A DNA stretch of 64,000 nt, from NCBI RefSeq assembly GCF_053078305.1, contig NZ_CP166879.1. One strand, written 5' to 3'. The position numbers were made by a program, and so were the translations under genes. Of this stretch, positions 8,899 through 48,039 are shown in pieces. Position 1 is the first letter of the stretch; every line of letters starts with the position of its first letter. The notes under the pieces were generated by a model. The model was not told the DNA's origin and searched no databases. It saw only the letters and a list, made by a program, of their open reading frames with translations.

Positions 8899-9075
8899 TA
8901 ACCAGGTGAATCATTTGATACCAACGAGGGTTTTAGTGAAAGGAGGTGAAATCACCTGTAAGATACTGAAATAAAACAGGTGATACCAATGCGAGCGCGG
9001 AAAGTCTATTTGATACCGATTGTGCAATAATTAGTCGTTTATTCTAAAATCGGCAACACTTTTGATACTACGGAT
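8897..9075 (+). repeat. prophage left end (attL-like) with transposase-binding-site repeats
   Basis: TTTGATACC at 8914 and 9009, TTTGATACT at 9061, GTGATACCA at 8979; spacing (about 17, 112, 164 bp from terminus) resembles Mu L1/L2/L3; terminus begins TGTA. Confidence 0.6.
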
Positions 9076-9168: not shown

Positions 9169-9729
9169 TTACGCACTAGCCTTTTTCTGGGTTACATTTA
9201 AATGATTAACCTTAGCTTCACATTCTTCATAAATCTCTCTTGCTTCAGAATCTGACATATCCTTTAACCTTAAAGCAAGCTCTCGGCGAAAACCGCTAAG
9301 TGCATGTAATTCCTGAATATTATCATCCAATAAGATCGTTAGAAAATCAGCCCCCTTTCTGCCAAGCAATCGGGCTAATTCTAGTTGCTCATCGGTGCTG
9401 AGAGAGGACAGAATTGCCGTAATTGTTTGATTTGCATTATCTAAATTACCTGCATCGACAGTTGAACAACATGGAGTGCTTGGGGTATTTTCATCAGAAC
9501 CAAAAGCTAACCAATTTAAACTCACGTGCTCTTTATTTGATATAAGGCAAGCCATTTTAAAAGAGGGTTCTGTGCCTTTGTGTATGTAGTTATTTAAGGT
9601 TGATACAGGAACCCCCCAATCCTTTGCTGCTGCCCTTACACTCCGCGTCCCGATCAGGCTTAGTAAGCGGGCTTTAAAACTTTCTTTTCCTGGTGCATCA
9701 AAAGAAAAATTTCCATTCTCTTCAATCAT
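9169..9729 (-). CDS. Mu c-type lysogeny repressor
   Basis: 186 aa, leftward gene next to left end, divergent from ner; N-terminal DNA-binding region; position identical to Mu Repc. Confidence 0.75.
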   Translation of the reverse strand: MIEENGNFSFDAPGKESFKARLLSLIGTRSVRAAAKDWGVPVSTLNNYIHKGTEPSFKMACLISNKEHVSLNWLAFGSDENTPSTPCCSTVDAGNLDNANQTITAILSSLSTDEQLELARLLGRKGADFLTILLDDNIQELHALSGFRRELALRLKDMSDSEAREIYEECEAKVNHLNVTQKKASA

Positions 9730-10147: not shown

Positions 10148-12235
10148 ATGTTTGCTTCAGTTAAAGAGCTGGTTGGATTACCGGGAATGCCGGGAACGGA
10201 GCAAGGCGTCCGCTATTCAATCAGGAAGTATGCAACCAGCGAAACCAGCAGACGCCGCCAGGAAGGCAGTAAAGGTTTTGAATACAGCATCGACTGTTTA
10301 CCTGAAGTGACGCAGCAGGCATTGCGTGAGCGCTACGCCCTGCAACTGATGACGCAAAAAGTCGATGAATCACCGGCTCCGGTGGTGACAAAGGCCAGAC
10401 GCTCGCCTGCCGTGGTTGATGCGGTGGAGGCATATCGCGGATCACCACAACTGATGGTTGAACGCCTTAATGCCCTGACTGAAAACCAGCGCCAGGTGGC
10501 TGATGCACGAATCGCGATCGTCAGCGAAGTGATGAAAGTCGCGCAACACCCCGGTTTCAGCTGTGCGAAAGCTATCCGGTTTATCGTTGACAACCTGGCA
10601 CGTTCGCAACTGGACGAGCGCATTGTGGCAATGGTTGAGACGGCGAACGCCAAAAAGGGAAACAGCCGTGCGTTGAGTGAAATAACGCTGAAACGCTGGA
10701 TTGCGGCCTTTAACAAGGCGCAGAACGCCGCTGAACGCCTGCTTTTACTGGCACCGGGTAAGCGCCAGGAAATAAAAGCCGAAGATATTAACTGGCTGCC
10801 CGAATTTCTGGCGCAGTATCGCCAGTCAAACGGCCGACCAATGACCGAGGCTTACGAGGATTTTGTCGCTGAATGGCAGCACCGGCACGCTGATGAGCCT
10901 TATATGCTCGATATCATGCCGTCTTATGACACCATTCGCCGCGCAATGAAGAAACTGCCGGAAGTGGTGAAACAAAAAGGCCGGGTGACCGGCAGTGAAT
11001 ACCGCCAGCTTGAGGGATTCACGCGCCGCGACTGGTCCAGAATGCCGGTGAATTATGTCTGGATTGGTGACGGTCACGGCATGAAGCTGAAATGCGCACA
11101 CCCGGTTCACGGTCGGCCATTTGCACCGGAAGTGACCTTTGTTATCGACGGTGGCACGCGCTTTGTGGTGGGCTGGAGCCTTGACCTGGCTGAAAATGTT
11201 TTCGCCGTAGCCGGTGCCATACAGCACGGCATTCGCCATCACGGCAAACCGTTTCTGTATTACTCGGATAACGGCTCCGGGGAAACCGCCGACATCCTGG
11301 ATAAGGAGGTTGTGGGGATACTGCCGCGACTGGGGATTAATCACCCGACCGGGATTGCCGGTAATCCGCAGGGACGAGGCATTATCGAACGGCTTAACCG
11401 CACATTACCGATGCGCATAGCCCGTAAATACCGCACCTATTTCGGGAAAGGTGCAGATCGCGAGACGTTACGCAAAACCAACCGCGATTTACGCTCGGCA
11501 TTTACTGCCCTGCAACAGGGCAAACGGCTGAACGTCCGGCAGCAGTCAGCGATGCGTGATTTACCGTCCTGGTCTGAACTGATTGATGCCATTCGTGACG
11601 GTGTTGAGTGGTACAACAACCGGCCGCACGATGAATTACCGGTGAAGCCGAACGGCAAGCATTACAGCCCGGCGGAGTTCAGAAAAAAACGCCTGGCGGA
11701 AGAGGACACGGAAATTGAATGGCTGTCCGATGTTGAGCTGCGGGATATGTTCCGGCCGATGGTGGAACGCCCTGTAAGACGCTGTGAAATACGCTGGCTG
11801 AATAATATTTACTACGCGCCCGAGCTGCGTGACGAGCATGGTCGTAAGGTGCTTATCAGCTATGACATTCATGATGCCGAACGAATTACCGTACGTCGCC
11901 TGGATGGCAGCGTGATTTGCGAGGCGGTATGGGACGGTAATAAACGCGAAGCCTTCCCGGTTAGTGCGGAATACTACAAACAGCAGCAACGCCTTAAAGG
12001 CATGCGTAAACGCGCAGAGGAAAAAATCCGTGATGCCGAGGATGAGGTTGTCAACGTGCTGGAGCACAAGCCGCAGGAGCCCTGGCTGGAAAACATCTAT
12101 CGCCCGGTAGGTAATACGGTGGCCGTTCAGCAACCGGTCGCTGACGATGAACCTGATGAAGAATACGAGCGTAATTTCCAGCGGGGATTGCAGTTGCTGG
12201 AAGCGAAATTAAAAGAAAATGACCCGCTGGCCTGA
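10148..12235 (+). CDS. MuA-like DDE transposase
   Basis: 695 aa; position after ner; central integrase-like core; size and order as MuA. Confidence 0.9.
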   Translation: MFASVKELVGLPGMPGTEQGVRYSIRKYATSETSRRRQEGSKGFEYSIDCLPEVTQQALRERYALQLMTQKVDESPAPVVTKARRSPAVVDAVEAYRGSPQLMVERLNALTENQRQVADARIAIVSEVMKVAQHPGFSCAKAIRFIVDNLARSQLDERIVAMVETANAKKGNSRALSEITLKRWIAAFNKAQNAAERLLLLAPGKRQEIKAEDINWLPEFLAQYRQSNGRPMTEAYEDFVAEWQHRHADEPYMLDIMPSYDTIRRAMKKLPEVVKQKGRVTGSEYRQLEGFTRRDWSRMPVNYVWIGDGHGMKLKCAHPVHGRPFAPEVTFVIDGGTRFVVGWSLDLAENVFAVAGAIQHGIRHHGKPFLYYSDNGSGETADILDKEVVGILPRLGINHPTGIAGNPQGRGIIERLNRTLPMRIARKYRTYFGKGADRETLRKTNRDLRSAFTALQQGKRLNVRQQSAMRDLPSWSELIDAIRDGVEWYNNRPHDELPVKPNGKHYSPAEFRKKRLAEEDTEIEWLSDVELRDMFRPMVERPVRRCEIRWLNNIYYAPELRDEHGRKVLISYDIHDAERITVRRLDGSVICEAVWDGNKREAFPVSAEYYKQQQRLKGMRKRAEEKIRDAEDEVVNVLEHKPQEPWLENIYRPVGNTVAVQQPVADDEPDEEYERNFQRGLQLLEAKLKENDPLA

Positions 12236-12306: not shown

Positions 12307-13239
12307 ATGACTGATATTAACGATGTAATCAAGACCATTGATGAACTTATTGATGGCGGCGTACTGACGCAGTATGCCATCGCCAGAGAGGCGGGAATTT
12401 CCGACGGCACATTATCGGCTTTCCGTAAGGGAAAATATAAAGGCGATAACGCTGCTGTGGCTGCTTCCCTGCGTTCCTGGTATGAGAACTGGAATAAACA
12501 AAGCGCACTGCCGGAACCGCCGCAGTTTGTGGAAACGCAGACAGTCCAGGAGCTGCGCGCACTGTTTCAGGCGGTTCGTCTGATGGGCTGTATTAACGTT
12601 ATTGTGGGCGTACCGGGTGTGGGTAAAACGGCCACTGCCCGTAATTACTGCCAGGAGCAACCAAACACCTGGATGATCACCCTGTCACCCGCGCACTCCA
12701 GCGTCACGGAGTGTCTGCTGGAGCTGGCCGATGCGCTGGGGATTGATTACACCCGCGCGAACAAAGGGGCATTATCCCGCGCCATCCGCCGTCGCCTGAT
12801 GGGAACGCGTGGACTGGTGATTGTGGATGAGGCGGATCATCTTGGTATTGACGGTCTGGAGCAACTCCGGGCAATTCAGGACGCCACGGGGATCGGGATG
12901 GTGCTTATTGGTAACCCGCGCGGATTGTTTAAAGGTGGACGCCGCGCCTTTGATGATTTATCGCGCCTGTTCAGCCGTCTTGCCCGTACAAAACAACTTC
13001 GCAAGGCCAAAAAGGCGGATGTGCTGGCCATTGCCAGGGCATGGGGTATCAGTGGTGAGGCCGAGCTGGCCGTCATGCAGGCTATCGCTGAAAAGCCCGG
13101 TGCGTTACGTGTTCTGACACATACGCTTAACCAGGCGTGGCTCACAGCCAGCGGTGAAGGCGCGGCGCTGACAGAAAAACATATTAATGCGGCCTTTAAA
13201 GAGGTTTATACCAACCCTGAATTACTCTCACAGGTGTGA
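12307..13239 (+). CDS. MuB-like AAA+ ATPase, transposition target activator
   Basis: 310 aa; Walker A GVPGVGKT; Walker B VIVDEADHL; clear similarity to Mu B as recalled. Confidence 0.9.
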   Translation: MTDINDVIKTIDELIDGGVLTQYAIAREAGISDGTLSAFRKGKYKGDNAAVAASLRSWYENWNKQSALPEPPQFVETQTVQELRALFQAVRLMGCINVIVGVPGVGKTATARNYCQEQPNTWMITLSPAHSSVTECLLELADALGIDYTRANKGALSRAIRRRLMGTRGLVIVDEADHLGIDGLEQLRAIQDATGIGMVLIGNPRGLFKGGRRAFDDLSRLFSRLARTKQLRKAKKADVLAIARAWGISGEAELAVMQAIAEKPGALRVLTHTLNQAWLTASGEGAALTEKHINAAFKEVYTNPELLSQV

Positions 13240-19441: not shown

Positions 19442-19867
19442 ATGGCAGAAACTCAGATGAGCATGTTTGGTGGTGACAGTGAGCAACTGCACGCCCTTAT
19501 CGACCGCCTTGATGACATCCCTGATGATGTTCTCAAAAAGAACTGGCCGCGGACCCTGTCAGAACTGGTTGAAGTCACCGGCGCAGAACTTCAGCGTCAG
19601 GGGATTGAGCCGGTACTGGCCGGTAAACTGGCACGCAAGGTGGCTGCGGCTCAGGCAGCCTATATGGGCGGACGGGGTTATTACCTGCCGGTCGGGGAAT
19701 CTCTCTTTGCCGAGCTGCGAAACAATGAGATATTTTCGCGCTGGGACCGGGGCGAGAAGATTGAATCCCTTCGCCGCCATTACCGGATGTCAGAAACCCA
19801 GATTTATACCGTCATACGTGAACAGCGCCGTCTGCATCTGGCAAGAACGCAACCGCCACTTTTCTGA
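19442..19867 (+). CDS. Mor/C-family transcriptional activator (late-gene activator)
   Basis: 141 aa; follows terminator and precedes lysis genes as Mu C; C-terminal HTH (RMSETQIYTVIREQRR). Confidence 0.7.
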   Translation: MAETQMSMFGGDSEQLHALIDRLDDIPDDVLKKNWPRTLSELVEVTGAELQRQGIEPVLAGKLARKVAAAQAAYMGGRGYYLPVGESLFAELRNNEIFSRWDRGEKIESLRRHYRMSETQIYTVIREQRRLHLARTQPPLF

Positions 19868-19938
19868 TATTCCGCAAAGCCTGCCGCCTCTCCTTCACCG
19901 TTACGCTGACTCAGAGAACATCATGAGACAGCGTAACA

Positions 19939-20439
19939 ATGCCAAAACTCCCCGCACCACTGCGTAAAAAGCTGATTGCCCTTGTTCTGGCCGGTGCCGG
20001 GACGTTCACGATTGCCACGCATTACACCGGTTACTGGGAAGGGAAAGAAAACTCCACGTATATCGATCCCACCGGTACACCCACCATCTGTTACGGCCAT
20101 ACCGGCCCGGATGTGAAACCGGGTATGACCCTGACAGATGAAGAATGCCTGGAACTACTGGAAAAGGACATGAAATGGGCCTTTGCGGCCATTGATCGGC
20201 GTGTTCAGGTGCCGCTTACCCGTGGTCAGACGGTGGCGCTGGCTTCGTGGATCTTCTGGGCCGGTGAAACGAACTTTCGCAACTCCACGCTTCTGCGCCT
20301 GATCAATGCCGGGCAGATGCCCGCGTCCTGTAAGCAGTATATCCGCTGGATTTATTCAAAGGGGGTGAAACTTCCCGGCCTTGAGGCCCGCCGTTCGGCG
20401 GATGAATGGTTATGTCGCTACGACTTGCCGAAAGTCTGA
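19939..20439 (+). CDS. endolysin (T4-lysozyme-like muramidase) with probable N-terminal SAR signal-anchor
   Basis: 166 aa; weakly hydrophobic Gly/Ala-rich N-terminus LIALVLAGAGTFTIA then catalytic region; position as Mu lys. Confidence 0.75.
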   Translation: MPKLPAPLRKKLIALVLAGAGTFTIATHYTGYWEGKENSTYIDPTGTPTICYGHTGPDVKPGMTLTDEECLELLEKDMKWAFAAIDRRVQVPLTRGQTVALASWIFWAGETNFRNSTLLRLINAGQMPASCKQYIRWIYSKGVKLPGLEARRSADEWLCRYDLPKV

Positions 20440-25755: not shown

Positions 25756-27064
25756 TTTAGGTTATGCCGCCACCCTTCCCTCAAAAGAGGCGGTGGCATA
25801 CTTCCGCGCCAAAGGGGCGCATATCAGCTGGAACTGGTTCGAAACAGACGCGGATGTTCATGCCCGTTCATTCACGGCGGCAAAAGCGGCACGCCTGGAC
25901 GTACTGACTACACTACAGGCGGAAGTGCAACGGGCTATTGATGAGGGGATTTCACAGAAAGCATTTATCCGCACACTGACCCCCCGCCTGCAAAAGCTGG
26001 GATGGTGGGGAAAGCAGATTGTGGTGGACAGCGCTGGTAACGCAGAAGAAGTGCAGCTGGGCAGTCCCCGCCGTCTGGCGCTGATTTACAACGTGAACAC
26101 CCGCGTGGCTTACAATGCCGGGCGTTACACGCAGATGATGAACAACACGGACACGCATCCGTTCTGGCAGTATGTGGCGGTGATGGACAGCCGCACCCGC
26201 CCGGCGCATTCCGCCCTTAACGGGCTGGTATTCCGCTATGACGATCCGTTCTGGAAAACACACTACCCGCCCAATGGCTGGAACTGCCGCTGCCGTGTCC
26301 GGCCATTGTCTCAGGCCCGTCTGGATGCGATGGGGCTGTCTGTTTCATCCGGTCAGGATCATCTCTCCACCCGCAATGTTGAGGCTGGCGTGGATAAGCA
26401 GACCGGGGAAGTCAGAGAAATGCCGGTGACCACATATTCAGATGGCACCAGAACCATGACACCGGATGTGGGCTGGTCATATAACCCCGGTTCGGCGGCG
26501 TTCGGCACAGACCAGGCGCTGATCCGTAAACTGATCGAGGTGAAAAGCCCGGCGTTACGGGAAATGGTGGTTCAGGAGATGAACAACAGCCCGGAGCGGC
26601 AGCTGGCGTTCCGCATCTGGGCAAAAAACATCATGAAAACCCGGCGAGGCGGTAACGATATCCGCACGCTGGGCTTTATGACCGAAAGTATTGCGCAGGC
26701 GGTGGAAAGCCGGACGGGAACGCCACCGGCCCGCCTGCTGGCGATGAGCGGTAAAAATGTGCTCCATGCGGACAGCGTGAAACATCAGAATGACGGTATC
26801 GCCCTGACGCCGGAGGATTTCGCGCAGTTTCCCGCCATGCTGGCTGCCCCCGATGCCGTGCTGTGGGATCATGTCCATCAGAACTTGCTTTACATCACTG
26901 AAACCCGTGACGGAACGGCAAAGATTGCCGTCAATGCGCCTTATAGTGTGAAACGTCAGCCGGATAAGCTGGATGTGGTGATTAATGCCTATAGAGTGAG
27001 CAGGAATACTCTGATTGATGCTGTTCAGGGAGGTAAGATGGAGATCCTCGAAGGGAAATTGTAA
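25739..27064 (+). CDS. Mu F-like head morphogenesis protein
   Basis: 441 aa; position after portal; size as Mu gpF. Confidence 0.8.
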   Translation: MAQGIDLGYAATLPSKEAVAYFRAKGAHISWNWFETDADVHARSFTAAKAARLDVLTTLQAEVQRAIDEGISQKAFIRTLTPRLQKLGWWGKQIVVDSAGNAEEVQLGSPRRLALIYNVNTRVAYNAGRYTQMMNNTDTHPFWQYVAVMDSRTRPAHSALNGLVFRYDDPFWKTHYPPNGWNCRCRVRPLSQARLDAMGLSVSSGQDHLSTRNVEAGVDKQTGEVREMPVTTYSDGTRTMTPDVGWSYNPGSAAFGTDQALIRKLIEVKSPALREMVVQEMNNSPERQLAFRIWAKNIMKTRRGGNDIRTLGFMTESIAQAVESRTGTPPARLLAMSGKNVLHADSVKHQNDGIALTPEDFAQFPAMLAAPDAVLWDHVHQNLLYITETRDGTAKIAVNAPYSVKRQPDKLDVVINAYRVSRNTLIDAVQGGKMEILEGKL

Positions 27065-27151
27065 GTCGGTGGTGGGGGTCGAACCCACATAAACATCCTT
27101 CGGGTGAAGATATCCCTCAGGTGCCGCTTTACCAGTTAAGAGTACACCGAC
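27065..27151 (-). tRNA. degenerate tRNA-Leu-like element (anticodon-loop GAG), no encoded CCA
   Basis: minus strand: 7-bp acceptor stem GTCGGTG/CACCGAC, consensus T-arm GTGGG-TTCGACC-CCCAC adjacent to acceptor 3' strand, U8, loop CTGAGGG with U33, ~20-nt variable region; D and anticodon stems imperfect. Confidence 0.4.
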
Positions 27152-27189
27152 CTGCTTTTATTTTAACCAGGTAGTTTCACGGAGGCAAT

Positions 27190-27663
27190 ATGTCATCCAT
27201 TGATGCCGCTGTCGTTGTTGACGTTACGCGTCTCCAGCGGGTCTTTGCCCGGCTTCAGTTTGTGGGTGGTGGAAAAGACCTGGCCCGCAGTGTGGCGGCG
27301 AGTCTTCTGTCATCGTCAGAAATGGCGTTTGAACAGGAAAAAGAGCCGGACGGCGAACGCTGGCATGACTGGTCAGATCCTTACCGCAAGTGGCGTACCC
27401 GTAAGGGATACATGCCCGGCAAAATCCTGACGCTGAACGGCGATCTGGCCCGACGCCTGACCACGGATTATGGAGATACCTGGGCGCTGATTGGATCAAA
27501 TGAGCCTTATGCGGCCATTCATCAGTGGGGTGGCCTGCCAGGTATGCCGCCTGGACCGGCGGCCATTGGTGCACGTCCGTATATGGGCTTTGATCAGGTG
27601 GCAGAGCAGGAGATCATGGACGAAATCAGAAAACGCTTTAAAAAGGCCACAGAAACGCCTTAA
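27190..27663 (+). CDS. virion morphogenesis protein (Mu G family)
   Basis: 157 aa; position after F. Confidence 0.7.
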   Translation: MSSIDAAVVVDVTRLQRVFARLQFVGGGKDLARSVAASLLSSSEMAFEQEKEPDGERWHDWSDPYRKWRTRKGYMPGKILTLNGDLARRLTTDYGDTWALIGSNEPYAAIHQWGGLPGMPPGPAAIGARPYMGFDQVAEQEIMDEIRKRFKKATETP

Positions 27664-27838
27664 TTGTTTAAGGTATGCAAATGCATTACCTTACCCCCTT
27701 CAGGCGCGTGTCGTGATTTTCTAACCTGTATTTAACGGGCTTTAAAATCTGCGTGAAGCGCCTTTGCATTTTTCCCTGAAAATACTTCCTGAAATCCCGC
27801 AAAACCCGCCCTGAAAATTCCCGGCTTATGCTGCCGGT
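27664..27838 (+). promoter_or_regulatory. candidate C-dependent late promoter region upstream of protease/scaffold gene (PI-like)
   Basis: 175-bp gap in otherwise tightly packed late genes; three direct CCTGAAA(A)T repeats and a near-palindrome GGTATGCAAATGCATTACC; Mu has a late promoter at this position. Confidence 0.35.
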
Positions 27839-28972
27839 ATGAAGACAGAAAATCACCCAAAAGACGCAAATCGCCCCTCTGGTTTAGCCGTGCTTTCAGC
27901 TTCGCTGACTGCATCCGGCGACGGATGGTGTCAGTTACTGCCAGCAGGCAGGGTAAAGGCCCGTGACGGTCGCCCGGAAAAACCGGCTGAAGGCTGGCTG
28001 ATTAACGAATCCGCCTGCAACCGGATGAAAGCCGGGCTTTCCGCCCTGAATCAGCCGTTACTGATTGATTATGACCATCACTCCATGAATGCGCGGAAAA
28101 ACGGATTCAAGGCCATTGCCGCAGGTTGGGTTAAGCCGGAAAACATCGAATGGCGTGAGGGTCAGGGGATTTTCATTAAACCTGAATGGACGCCGCAGGC
28201 CCAAAAACATATTGATGACCGTGAATATGCCTATCTGTCTGCGTATATGCATTATTTCGCTGACACCGGGGAACCCTACCTGTTGCGCATGGCTTCCCTG
28301 ACGAATGATCCAGGTATTACGGGTATGAACCCTGTCGCAGCACTCAGTGCTGACGATCTCTATGTAGTTTCCCCTTCTCAGGAGCAACACCCCATGAATG
28401 AGCAATTACGCCAGTTGCTGACGGCGCTCGGTCTGACCGTGGCTGATGGTGACGAATTTACGCCGGAGCTGGGCACGGCAGCGCTGTCTGCCCTCACCGG
28501 GATCAAAACCCGTGCGGATGCACACGACAACCTGAAAACACAGGTCGCCTGTCTGTCGGCAGAGCTGGAAACTGCAAAAGGCACACCGGCTGGCGGCAGT
28601 ATTGATCTGACGAAATACGTGCCCGTTGAAACGTATAACGCCCTGCGTACCGAATACGTTGCGCTGTCGGCGCAGCACGGCAGCACCACGCTGGAGCAGT
28701 TGCTGGACAAGGCCGAGTCCGAAGGACGCATCTTCAAAAGTGAACGCGGCTATCTGGAACAACTGGGCGGGCAGATTGGCGTGGCGGCACTTTCTGCACA
28801 GCTTGACGCCCGACAGCCGGTTGCGGCCCTGACCGGTCTTCAGACCGACACCGTGACCGTGCCGGATAAAAAGACTGCCACCGCTGTGCTGTCGGCTGAA
28901 GATATCGCGGCCGCCAAACTGCTGGGTAAAACCGAAGCCGAGTTCCTGAAAATGAAAGAGGAAATGCAATAA
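27839..28972 (+). CDS. head maturation protease / scaffold (Mu I family)
   Basis: 377 aa; N-terminal protease-like region, C-terminal helical Ala/Leu-rich scaffold-like region; order I-T. Confidence 0.8.
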   Translation: MKTENHPKDANRPSGLAVLSASLTASGDGWCQLLPAGRVKARDGRPEKPAEGWLINESACNRMKAGLSALNQPLLIDYDHHSMNARKNGFKAIAAGWVKPENIEWREGQGIFIKPEWTPQAQKHIDDREYAYLSAYMHYFADTGEPYLLRMASLTNDPGITGMNPVAALSADDLYVVSPSQEQHPMNEQLRQLLTALGLTVADGDEFTPELGTAALSALTGIKTRADAHDNLKTQVACLSAELETAKGTPAGGSIDLTKYVPVETYNALRTEYVALSAQHGSTTLEQLLDKAESEGRIFKSERGYLEQLGGQIGVAALSAQLDARQPVAALTGLQTDTVTVPDKKTATAVLSAEDIAAAKLLGKTEAEFLKMKEEMQ

Positions 28973-43738: not shown

Positions 43739-43828
43739 GACGCTCCCTTTGTTGGGCCTTTACTGAATTAACGCAAAATGGCGTTTATCGGTCTGTGGAT
43801 ATGATAATTCTGTTTATTCAGGAACAGG

Positions 43829-45886
43829 ATGAATATTATGACGTCCAAATGGGTTCAACTATCATCAATGCCCGGAAACTTTACCGTTAAAGTTTCCGGT
43901 GGTACAGCGGCATTTCTTGAGGCTCCCTTTCCTCCTGCTGAAACGAAAGGAGGAATGACATTTGCTGACTGTCTCATCAGTTTTAATACACAGGATTGCC
44001 TGTGGGTAAGGCCAGTATCCGGTGATCCGAACGTGGAAATTACCGGAGCGGGTATTGGTGCTGTCATTCCGTTAAGTGCTGATGTTGCCGGTACTACTGA
44101 ACCGTCAGACTGGGATAATGCAGAAACACATACCCGTCCGGCAGGAAATGAAACGGCTTCCAGCTCCCCTTCCTGGTATTACGTGATTGTTATAGCCGGC
44201 CAGTCCAATGCTTCATCTTATGGTGAAGGGTTGCCCCTTCCGGATTCTTATGATCGTCCTGATCCACGTATTATGCAGCTGGCACGCAGGAATACACAAA
44301 CCCCCGGAGGTATTCCCTGCAAATACAATGAAATCATTCCAGCAGATCACTGCCTTCATGATGTTCAGAATATGAGTCTGCTGAACCATCCAAAAGCAGA
44401 CCTGAAAAAAGGGCAGTATGGTTGTGTGGGGCAGGGACTTCATATTGCGAAAAAAGTATTACCGGTGATTCCTGCTGATGCCGGGATTTTACTGGTTCCC
44501 TGTGCCCGTGGCGGCTCTGCTTTTACAACCGGCGCAGTTGGCTCATTCGATCCGGCAAGTGGTGCAGCCGAGGCGTCACTACGCTGGGGAGTGGATACCC
44601 CACTGTATCAGGATCTTGTCAGTCGAACTAAAGCGGCACTTGAGGCGAATCCAAAGAATGTGCTGTTATCTGTCGTATGGATTCAGGGGGAAGGAGACCT
44701 TAAAGCGACCCCGGCCCAGCATGGTGCCCAGTTTACTGCGATGGTGAAAAAATTCCGTGCGGATCTTGGGGCTTTCTCCGGTCAGTGTATTGGTGGTTCA
44801 TCAGACAGTGTGCCGTGGTTATGTGGTGACACAACCTATGACTGGAAAGAGAAGAACCCGGCGGCATATGAAACCATTTATAGCGGATATAAAAACCGGG
44901 CTTCCGAGAACATTCACTTTGTTCCACTGATGCACGATGAGTTCGGTAATAAAACCGCGACCAACCTGCCGGAGCACGACCCGGATATCGCTTCTGCCGG
45001 GTATTATGGTGCGGAATCACGGGGAGATGGCAACTGGACAACAGCATCCAGGGCAACCCATTTTAGCTCCTGGGCGCGCCGTTTTCTGGTCTCAGATCGT
45101 TTTGCATCAGCAATTCTTAAATATGCAGGTCTGACCTCTGCATTTATTGCCGGTGTGGCCCCTGATGGTGAAACCCTGCCTCAGCCCGCGCCGGGTGGGA
45201 AACCGGAAGCGCCGACAGGTAGTCAGCCAGGAGGCAGTGAGTCCCCCCATCCGACATCCCCGTCACTCCGTACGCTGCTTTCACTTAAAGCATCAGCAGG
45301 AGAAGCCCCGGCTCAGGGCTGGAAAATTACAGATGGTACAATCCAGCTGACGGACGAAGGTAAAGCGTTGACCGTATCCAAACAAAGCGGAAAAACCTGG
45401 ACGCTTACCCATGGAACTGATGCAGCCGGTGAACTTCTGAAGCATGGTGGTCAGTTGACCTGTAAATTCCGTCTGTCAGGTGAAGTAAAAGAAGGCCAGT
45501 TTGCTCTGGGTATTTACCTCCACACCGATACGGTCCCGGAAGGTGTAACCATGAGTGGTACAGGCACACCGTTCCTGATGGCGTATTATCTCCAGACAAC
45601 AGGCGGCCAGTTAAATCTGATGCACCATAAAACAGGGGGGAATACGAAACTGGGATCATTTGGAGCCTACAATAACCAGTGGCATACACTTGTCCTGAAG
45701 TTTACGGCGGGAAGTGCCCAGGTAACGCCTGTGCTGGATGGCACTCCGGGCCAGGCATTCCAGATGGTGAAAGATGCACTTTCCCCTGCCAAAGATACGC
45801 TGACACTGACAGATGTCACCAAAGGGGCAACTTATGGCGTGTCTTTTGAGAGCGTTGTCCTTGAGGTTAATACCCCTGCGGCATAA
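43829..45886 (+). CDS. cargo protein with central SGNH / sialate-O-acetylesterase-like domain and C-terminal beta-sandwich domain
   Basis: 685 aa; GQSNASSYGE motif after a hydrophobic strand, typical of SASA/DUF303 esterases; Pro/Gly-rich linker PQPAPGGKPEAPTGSQPGGSESP; Mu has no gene here. Confidence 0.6.
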   Translation: MNIMTSKWVQLSSMPGNFTVKVSGGTAAFLEAPFPPAETKGGMTFADCLISFNTQDCLWVRPVSGDPNVEITGAGIGAVIPLSADVAGTTEPSDWDNAETHTRPAGNETASSSPSWYYVIVIAGQSNASSYGEGLPLPDSYDRPDPRIMQLARRNTQTPGGIPCKYNEIIPADHCLHDVQNMSLLNHPKADLKKGQYGCVGQGLHIAKKVLPVIPADAGILLVPCARGGSAFTTGAVGSFDPASGAAEASLRWGVDTPLYQDLVSRTKAALEANPKNVLLSVVWIQGEGDLKATPAQHGAQFTAMVKKFRADLGAFSGQCIGGSSDSVPWLCGDTTYDWKEKNPAAYETIYSGYKNRASENIHFVPLMHDEFGNKTATNLPEHDPDIASAGYYGAESRGDGNWTTASRATHFSSWARRFLVSDRFASAILKYAGLTSAFIAGVAPDGETLPQPAPGGKPEAPTGSQPGGSESPHPTSPSLRTLLSLKASAGEAPAQGWKITDGTIQLTDEGKALTVSKQSGKTWTLTHGTDAAGELLKHGGQLTCKFRLSGEVKEGQFALGIYLHTDTVPEGVTMSGTGTPFLMAYYLQTTGGQLNLMHHKTGGNTKLGSFGAYNNQWHTLVLKFTAGSAQVTPVLDGTPGQAFQMVKDALSPAKDTLTLTDVTKGATYGVSFESVVLEVNTPAA

Positions 45887-46757: not shown

Positions 46758-47019
46758 ATGTAGTATCCTGTTGATTTGAAACATACTACATATACGCGCG
46801 ATCCTACCTTCACTGTATAAAAAGTCAATAAAATGATCATTTTATGATCGTTTTCACCACCTAACTCTTCGTTTCTTTAAGTAAATAATCACCGCCCTGA
46901 ATCATTGTTGATGACTTTTAAATCTATTTGTTGTATCAATTAAACAAATCGAATCGATCGTTTTTGTCGATCGATTGCATGAGAAAGGCATCAACAACAA
47001 AGCAGGAGGTTATGCGGCC
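46758..47019 (+). promoter_or_regulatory. com-mom control region with dyad symmetries and Dam GATC cluster
   Basis: ATGTAGTAT-N16-ATACTACAT dyad (46758-46791); palindrome AAATGATCATTT (46831-46842); GATC at 46800, 46835, 46846, 46956, 46969; two TCGATCG motifs 13 bp apart ~50-65 bp upstream of com. Confidence 0.5.
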
Positions 47020-47220
47020 ATGTATCGAAACATACGGTGCCGACACTGCAATAAGCTACTGGCACGGGCCAGTTTCAGTTATCTGGAAGTAAAATGTCCG
47101 CGCTGTAAAACCCTCAATCAAATCACATCTCCGAGCGCCACAGAGCACCCCACATACACAAGGAAATCCTGTCGTGGGGAACAGAAAGCAAGTCACATCC
47201 CGTATCATCAGCACGCCTGA
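47020..47220 (+). CDS. com: Com zinc-finger translational activator of mom
   Basis: 67 aa; [10 protein letters not shown]...[12 protein letters not shown] parallels Mu Com as recalled; AGGAGG Shine-Dalgarno upstream; overlaps mom start. Confidence 0.8.
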
Positions 47221-47911: not shown

Positions 47912-47957
47912 GCGCTTAAAAACTCATTCTAAAACTCAAAAGAAAAGCGCCGATTTA

Positions 47958-48039
47958 GTATCAAATAAGTTGCGTATCGGCGTTTTTCAGCGGTATCAAA
48001 TGAAATGCAAATCGGTATCAAAAAAATCGCCGCGCTATA
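47958..48039 (+). repeat. prophage right end (attR-like) with three transposase-binding-site repeats
   Basis: AGTATCAAA (47958), GGTATCAAA (47992), GGTATCAAA (48014): inverted copies of the left-end motif, clustered like Mu R1-R3; terminus placed where ftnB reading frame diverges. Confidence 0.6.

Follow-up and report, generated by a model that had tools for sequence, protein, structure and literature searches.

A probable strong gyrase site followed by a predicted PI-type late promoter in the G-I gap of an Sp18-type Mu-like prophage of E. coli

Bacteriophage Mu carries a strong gyrase site (SGS) whose central position in the genome is required and on which replication and an efficient synapsis of the prophage ends depend (PMC10052514; PMC3820752). 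The cut site of gyrase is annotated in the Mu record in the gap between genes G and I, 20 bp after the G stop codon. Gyrase covers ~130 bp centred on the cut (PMC6379681), and the right arm is the essential part of the Mu site (PMC10052514). The SGS of the Mu-like prophage of the Sakai strain is the only heterologous site tried that substituted for the Mu SGS, promoting Mu replication (PMC10052514). The late promoters of Mu lack a -35 element and combine a -10 hexamer with a dyad, centred at -43.5, that is bound by the activator C (PMC2582627), the C site having the consensus TTAT-N5-6-ATAA (PMC12867686). The subject of the present analysis is the G-I gap of a Mu-like prophage found in a 64-kb stretch of E. 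coli chromosome (contig NZ_CP166879.1; hereafter the window). It extends over 175 bp (27664-27838) between the end of G at 27663 and the ATG of the protease/scaffold gene I at 27839, as described in an earlier note on this DNA, which pointed out rightly that Mu has its C-dependent promoter PI in the same gap (PMC2582627).

The gap is most probably the homologue of the centre of Mu, a cis-acting region in two parts where an SGS is followed by a PI-type late promoter belonging to a regulon of three promoters, while the array of CCTGAAA repeats that it contains is a by-product. It is the Sp18-type counterpart of the Mu SGS and PI, an ordinary arrangement among phages of its type. Sp18, the Mu-like prophage of E. 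coli O157:H7 Sakai, is ~97% identical to the window prophage across its whole length; the alignment falls into five blocks, mostly of ~97-99% identity and one of 93%. The earlier note had suggested that the gap holds activator sites of a late promoter. A promoter is indeed predicted there, but most of the gap (27664-27765) is attributed here to the SGS, which that note overlooked. Relatives were collected as 71 loci from viral contigs encoding relatives of protein I, complemented with Sp18 and three other E. coli copies, and the conservation counts given below refer to an alignment of 19 distinct close versions of the gap. Gene names assigned by PGAP are those of a 99.8%-identical locus, L001.

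The predicted SGS (~27618-27765) would comprise the end of G, a near-palindrome and an invariant right arm (27694-27765). It lies between the homologues of G and I, the same gap that holds the annotated Mu cut. The best local alignment between the Mu and window gaps pairs CGGGATTTTTAAACCGGTATTTAACGG with CGTGATTTTCTAACCTGTATTTAACGG, with 23 of 27 positions identical and a score reached in none of 2000 shuffles. This right-arm core (27712-27738 in the window) is found at an identical offset from the G stop codon in both phages (48-75), so that the Mu cut maps to 27683/27684 in the window, inside the near-palindrome and, as in Mu, ~20 bp past the G stop. In terms of prophage length the predicted cut lies near the centre, at 48.0%, the corresponding values being 48.7% for Mu and 47.2% for Sp18. 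Identity to the G-I gap of Sp18 is complete over the first 103 bp (103/103), a stretch that includes the core and the right arm, and Sp18 in effect already provides the characterisation of the SGS half. Over the block 27701-27765, 17 of the 19 relatives agree fully and the other two differ at 1 and 2 positions, and its invariance extends to relatives whose I protein is only ~74% identical.

The right arm shares with Mu the presence of phased TTTAA-type motifs, which occupy 27716-23, 27731-35 and 27741-47 in the window (TTTTCTAA at 27716, ATTTAA at 27730 and TTTAAAA at 27741). TTTAAAC-like motifs, in pairs or triplets with a spacing of exactly 11 bp (20-21 bp in the case of a triplet's first motif), are seen again in the G-I gaps of very distant Mu-like phages, with I proteins of only 38-54% identity (L027, L028, L031, L032, L037, L041, L042, L048, L049, L055, L058, L059, L061, L062, L067 and L069; the motif reads TTTAATAG in L037). 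The spaced motifs are probably a conserved signature of the right arm of the gyrase site. The window site also departs from that of Mu: the two sequences are barely alignable beyond the 27-bp core, Mu has no near-palindrome where the window has one at its core, and the first TTTTTTAAAA block of Mu (offset 33-42) is missing in the window.

By analogy with Mu, host DNA gyrase would bind the SGS and cleave it near 27683/84, the 3' end of G being the left arm of the wrapped region. The phased A/T motifs of the right arm would wrap around the GyrA C-terminal domain, leading to highly processive supercoiling. Because the SGS sits mid-way in the 39-kb prophage, the plectoneme generated could join the two prophage ends and pair them for transpososome assembly on induction, a role taken from the Mu system.

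The near-palindrome (AAGGTA-TGCAAATGCA-T-TACCTT, 27669-27693) starts 6 nt after the G stop codon. It had been correctly spotted in the earlier note, where it was counted among the possible activator sites; its coincidence with the mapped position of the Mu gyrase cut argues for a different assignment, the core of the SGS. The outer arms AAGGTA/TACCTT are present in 19/19 relatives, with one A-to-G change in four of these, and the central 8 bp vary among relatives with no compensatory changes. Alternatively, the palindrome could work in the RNA: as a 3' stem-loop it would end or stabilise the late transcript that runs from lys to G, instead of or besides being the gyrase core. Its start right behind G, a predicted RNA fold of -10 kcal/mol (z = -3.8) and an outer 6-bp stem that no relative has lost, one T-A to T-G change in it being tolerated only in RNA, are in favour of such a function. 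It is nevertheless quite unlikely, as the inner stem positions drift to uncompensated A-C mismatches and Mu has no palindrome at the equivalent position even though its SGS is there. An intrinsic terminator was also considered and rejected: no U-tract follows the palindrome and a terminator scan of the plus strand makes no call there.

Downstream of the SGS comes a variable linker (27766-27783), the bin in which conservation within the gap is lowest (0.71) and in which relatives have indels of 1-2 bp. Conservation resumes at 27784. From there on CTGAA[AG]TCCCGCAAAACC, an A-tract, CCGGC-YTATGCT-GCCGG and the ATG of I are kept in 19/19 relatives. The promoter half differs from Sp18 at 7 positions; the latter has CCCCTGGAAGC at the site of the first CCTGAAA repeat and CCTATGCT in place of the window CTTATGCT. 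This succession of invariant block, variable linker and conserved box has no codon periodicity. It bears on the idea of a small protein or small RNA being encoded in the gap, for which two minus-strand open reading frames (ORFs) of 56 (27686-27856) and 60 amino acids (27732-27914) could be invoked. Both ORFs are hit by indels of 1-2 bp in relatives, at 27766-27775, and the gap has no Rfam match at E <= 1, which together with the conservation pattern make a product of this kind hardly credible.

The second part of the region (27784-27838) would be the PI-type late promoter for the head genes. Its -10 hexamer TATGCT (plus strand, 27827-27832) matches 4/6 positions of the consensus and is found in 19/19 relatives, while the -35 position, 17 bp upstream, reads ACCCGC and has no match (0/6) to TTGACA; a promoter scan yielded no complete sigma-70 promoter on the plus strand. 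The A of the I ATG (27839) is the predicted +1 and was taken as such for numbering. The predicted activator box CTGA-N6-GCAAA (plus strand, 27789-27803) is then located at -50 to -36. The regions upstream of lys and of I share TTYCTGAWATYCCGCAAARCCYGCC, identical at 20 of 25 positions, a score reached in 5 of 5000 shuffles. Both have TTAYGCTG at identical spacing, and their boxes end 20 nt before the -10 hexamers. The idea that this gap houses an activator-dependent promoter gains support from its promoter-proximal third, which looks like one: it has a -10 hexamer but no -35, and its box is also seen, at identical spacing, upstream of lys. The part of that idea that relied on the repeat array gains none.

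Reading of the Mu sequences gave the same architecture. At Plys, PI and Pmom a motif ATAAnCnC is followed after 20 nt by a -10 hexamer, in agreement with the published -43.5 centre; the pairs are ATAATCCC/TAGACT (Plys), ATAACCCC/CAAACT (PI) and ATAACCAC/TAAGAT (Pmom). The window promoter thus resembles Mu late promoters in having a -10 without a -35, in the 20-nt distance to the -10 and in an A/T run in the spacer, since T6 runs occur in the spacers of Plys and Pmom at the position equivalent to the A-tract of the third repeat (PMC4461284). Its conserved element covers the positions -50 to -37 of the Mu C site, the box itself reaching -36, and a Mor/C-family activator is encoded just upstream of lys in both phages. 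The differences concern the box, which is CTGA-N6-GCAAA and not TTAT-N5-6-ATAA, the activators, with a single gene in the window prophage and Mor plus C in Mu, and the promoter set, three being found in the window, none of them for the tail genes or mom. Mu PI is also predicted to give a 26-nt leader with a Shine-Dalgarno sequence, in contrast to the window promoter, whose -10 is 6 nt before the ATG. The region is similar to a C-dependent promoter in its predicted working but fails the sequence definition of the Mu C site. The promoter half can be viewed as an addition to the Mor/C-dependent class that is set apart by its box.

The earlier note had invoked a Mor/C-family gene, and one is present (plus strand, 19442-19867). 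Its product, named 'Mor transcription activator family protein' by PGAP, is 39% identical to Mu C (E = 5e-28) and 26% identical to Mor (tblastn, 1e-10); no second copy was detected in the prophage by tblastn with Mu C and Mor. The single gene implies a transcription cascade of two steps rather than three. We infer that the CTGA-N6-GCAAA box is bound by this activator where Mu C binds TTAT-N5-6-ATAA. By our own count in the alignment, the protein differs from Mu C at several of the residues listed as DNA contacts in a cryo-electron microscopy preprint (R98E, Q116T and R120E). The activator gene follows a gp16/GemA-like gene and directly precedes lys, with no terminator-like hairpin between them.

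The CTGA-N6-GCAAA box occurs four times in the 64-kb window. Three occurrences are on the plus strand, all of them intergenic (19864, 27789 and 43763), 37-38 bp before a -10-like hexamer and conserved in Sp18 and L001. The first belongs to the predicted lys late promoter (plus strand), with the box at 19864-19878, the -10 TACGCT at 19902-19907 and a predicted +1 at ~19914; in relatives its box and -10 are conserved while the spacer between them is variable. The last is at a third candidate promoter (plus strand), composed of a box at 43763-43777 (CTGAATTAACGCAAA) and a -10 hexamer TATGAT at 43800-43805 (5/6), upstream of a 685-amino acid ORF (43829-45886). Searched with up to 3 mismatches, the full 21-22-bp box is found only at lys and I, and a relaxed scan for box plus -10 adds only the 43763 site. 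With a weight matrix built from the lys and I boxes alone, a site at 43760 takes fifth place in the prophage, the four better ones being both training sites and a pair of matches in coding sequence; the 43760 site is the only extra match that is both intergenic and followed by a 5/6 -10 hexamer at the right spacing. The same box-to-hexamer layout ahead of lys, I and the 685-amino acid gene leads us to assign the three promoters to one late regulon.

The 685-amino acid ORF, annotated as DUF6645 by PGAP, has the invertase on one side and com/mom on the other. The region upstream of com/mom (46885-47020) contains no Mu-type C site and no CTGA-N6-GCAAA box. A Mu-like ATAATCAC box at 46885 was discarded as a promoter because 26 nt instead of 20 separate it from the best -10 hexamer. 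A GATC cluster is found at 46957-46976, as in Mu, but here it lies just ~45 bp before the com ATG at 47020.

The CCTGAAA repeats to which the earlier note drew attention are real. The three copies lie on the plus strand at 27775, 27788 and 27810, the first and third sharing the exact 10-mer CCCTGAAAAT (27774-27783 and 27809-27818). Such clustering is uncommon: any 7-mer repeated three times within 60 bp arose in 55 of 20,000 dinucleotide-preserving shuffles of the gap, and only three loci of the 64-kb window have a triple cluster of this type, another being the GTATCAA repeats at the right end of the prophage, which presumably bind the transposase. CCTGAAA is, however, over-represented throughout the window (27 observed versus 8.8 expected), an excess that we conjecturally attribute to the common codon pair CTG-AAA, and genome-wide shuffles consequently overstate the rarity of the motif.

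Conservation separates the three copies. CCTGAAA is kept in copy 1 in 6, in copy 2 in 9 and in copy 3 in 11 of the 19 relatives, which makes the triple repeat specific to this sub-lineage; about ten E. coli copies are at least 95% identical to the triple-repeat version of the window. Copy 1 (-65 to -56) falls within the variable linker. It reads CCTGAAA in 6 relatives, CCTGTCA in 9 and CCTGGAA in 4, is absent from Sp18, and would exist in this sub-lineage only, the linker around it being fast-evolving. Copy 2 (27788-27794, -52 to -44) holds CTGA and would simply be the left half of the conserved box. Copy 3 (plus strand, -30 to -21, in the promoter spacer) reads CCTGAAA in 11 relatives, CCCGAAA in 5 and CCCAAAA in 3, so that its A-tract alone is conserved (19/19); the copy would reflect an overlap with the conserved A-tract of the spacer.

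The original proposal, that the repeats may be activator sites, leads to a reading in which the three CCTGAAA(A)T copies form a cooperative array of sites for the Mor/C-family activator. The unusual clustering, the 10-mer common to copies 1 and 3, the presence of CTGA, the left half of the box, in all three copies, and a cryo-electron microscopy preprint in which a Mu C tetramer spans about three helical turns are compatible with it. The proposal is very improbable when confronted with the distribution of the copies, as only copy 2 overlaps the conserved box, copy 1 occurs in 6/19 relatives and not in Sp18, and copy 3 has lost its TG in 8/19. Copies 1 and 3 also lack a GCAAA half-site 6 bp downstream and fall outside the Mu C footprint of -30 to -55 (PMC2582627). 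A single CTGA is found at lys and at the third promoter, and the search for CCTGAAA upstream of lys and com, suggested in the earlier note, found it in neither; lys shares CTGA-N6-GCAAA instead.

Another explanation is that the repeats matter as phased A-tracts, through DNA curvature, as an UP-like element tuning the promoter or as an extension of the gyrase wrap. Four A-tracts are found (27779, 27792, 27801 and 27814), that of the spacer being kept in 19/19 relatives, and the T6 runs of the Mu spacers occupy the equivalent place. Negative regulation of the mom promoter by intrinsic DNA distortion is also reported in the title of a paper listed among the references of PMC4461284. The tracts are poorly phased, however, with spacings of 12.5, 9.5 and 13 bp (mean 11.7), the first one is lineage-specific, and a 130-bp gyrase footprint centred on 27684 would stop near 27750. 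Although individual A-tracts possibly have a role in DNA shape, this explanation of the repeats is conceivable but unlikely.

The assignment of the gap to an SGS and a PI-type promoter has to be balanced against several observations. All evidence on the window sequence is computational, and the functional result for the Sakai site is taken from a review (PMC10052514). The neighbouring gene G is also 90-100% conserved in the same relatives, and the invariance of the right arm could partly reflect a shared recombination block rather than selection. The A/T periodicity of the right arm is in the top 1-3% of the window, compared with 0.4-0.8% for Mu, and a scan with the published 133-bp gyrase consensus, scored by identity or by strong/weak base class, did not place even the Mu SGS near the top and is thus uninformative. 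On the promoter side, the Mu C consensus TTAT-N5-6-ATAA has six matches in the window, none of them in late-gene gaps, the proposed box is only weakly dyad-symmetric (CTGA versus TTGC), and neither the tail genes nor com/mom are preceded by a copy of the box in the scans made. If transcription started with the A of the I ATG, the mRNA would be leaderless, which is unusual for an abundant scaffold protein.

This last feature deserves attention. Exactly 6 nt separate the end of the TATGCT hexamer from the ATG of I, the consequence being that the PI transcript would be leaderless. Among the 52 gene starts of Sp18 that were tested, none but that of I has a -10-like hexamer at this distance; no Shine-Dalgarno sequence can be read upstream of the I ATG, and the reading frame of I is closed upstream by a TGA at 27812-27814. 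The hexamer lies in the loop of an inverted repeat, CCGGC-TTATGCT-GCCGG (plus strand, 27821-27837), which is present in 19/19 relatives and whose RNA has a predicted fold of -9.5 kcal/mol (z = -2.1). At lys a perfect 9-bp inverted repeat, GTTACGCTG/CAGCGTAAC (19900-19937), contains the -10 in its 5' arm and ends 1 nt before the ATG with its 3' arm. The fold of RNA with both arms has -20.1 kcal/mol (z = -6.0), and no structure is seen in RNA that begins at the predicted +1. Similar hairpins lie across the predicted starts of the third promoter and of Mu PI. Two distant Mu-like lineages have TTAA-N6-ATAA, a near-consensus C box, followed by 20 nt, CACTAT or CACACT, 6 nt and the ATG, within an inverted repeat.

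At lys, I and the 685-amino acid gene the 5' arm lies across or flanks the -10/+1 and the 3' arm is at the start codon, so that the hairpin would form only in transcripts reading through from upstream. We tentatively propose, as a possibility somewhat short of even chances, that late promoters of this phage group are built so that only promoter-initiated RNA is translatable and that the PI transcript is leaderless. In one distant lineage the predicted start is just 5' of the hairpin, which speaks against this proposal since the promoter-initiated transcript would include the hairpin, and a perfect inverted repeat of at least 5 bp ending no more than 6 nt from a random position is expected by chance in 12% of cases. 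A literature search for leaderless I mRNA in Mu-like phages found no relevant report among the papers covered. 'Fold-back inhibition' of read-through transcripts was reportedly described for IS10 and IS50 by Davis, Simons and Kleckner in 1985. There too the 5' arm of an inverted repeat is located upstream of or across the element's own transcription start, so that a hairpin by the start codon is limited to outside transcripts; the similarity is a resemblance only, between phage late genes here and transposase there.

The prophage that harbours this region is about 39.1 kb long and extends from 8897 (left end TGTAACCAGG) to ~48040, the position where homology to two independent copies, Sp18 and L001, stops. 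Its gene order matches that of Mu. The repressor gene (minus strand, 9169-9729) is followed by the genes for transposase A (10148-12235) and B (12307-13239), the activator gene and lysozyme gene lys (19939-20439); terminase, portal and F genes lie between lys and G. G (plus strand, 27190-27663), identified as an ORF and named virion morphogenesis by PGAP in L001, has ~70% DNA identity to Mu G. I (plus strand, 27839-28972) is the ORF named 'phage protease' by PGAP in L001 and 'protease/scaffold protein' in Sp18; the gene of the major head protein T (28972-29919) comes next, and tail genes, the invertase and com/mom follow the head genes. The G-I gap had been presented as the only sizeable intergenic gap of the late region. 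Others exist, of 125 bp between F and G (27065-27189), 126 bp before the tape-measure gene (33900-34025), 90 bp before the 685-amino acid gene (43739-43828) and 71 bp between the activator gene and lys. Homologous G-I regions were found in 271 of 5,426 complete E. coli genomes, some of which have up to 4 prophage copies.

The prophage is flanked by yegH on the left, the remainder of this gene being outside the window, and by ftnB on the right. In E. coli K-12 these two genes are ~150 kb apart. A target-site duplication was sought at the prophage ends and is absent, the left end being bordered by CTTCG and the right end by CTGGG, since the flanks come from different loci; the right end was therefore set by homology to Sp18 and L001. 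The mismatched flanks suggest an inversion or deletion tied to the prophage, or recombination between two copies. Just inside the right end, (G)GTATCAAA occurs three times (47957-48020), mirrored by TTTGATACC at the left end (8915-8925); these end repeats are presumably transposase-binding sites. The F-G gap codes on the minus strand for a tRNA-like element (27064-27151) with intact acceptor, D and T arms and 26 nt in place of the 11 positions of the anticodon region. It scores 30 bits with the Rfam tRNA model, for a gathering score of 29, is called 'tRNA-OTHER' by PGAP in L001 and is not called by ARAGORN; a similar sequence is found in L024.

The analysis assigns the G-I gap to two well-understood functions, a gyrase site that aids pairing of the prophage ends and the late promoter of the head genes, an assignment that guards against mis-annotation of the repeats as an operator array. 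The near-invariant right arm of the SGS in this set of relatives, combined with the presence of the region in the 271 genomes, provides a convenient marker for these prophages. CTGA-N6-GCAAA is a testable candidate for the recognition sequence of the Sp18-type Mor/C activator, different from the TTAT-N5-6-ATAA of Mu C, and the three-promoter regulon includes a promoter before an uncharacterised accessory gene, that of the 685-amino acid protein. The idea of a leaderless I transcript and of a lock on read-through RNA is the only part that might surprise a specialist; if true, it would mean a further level of control over when Mu-type phages express their late genes.

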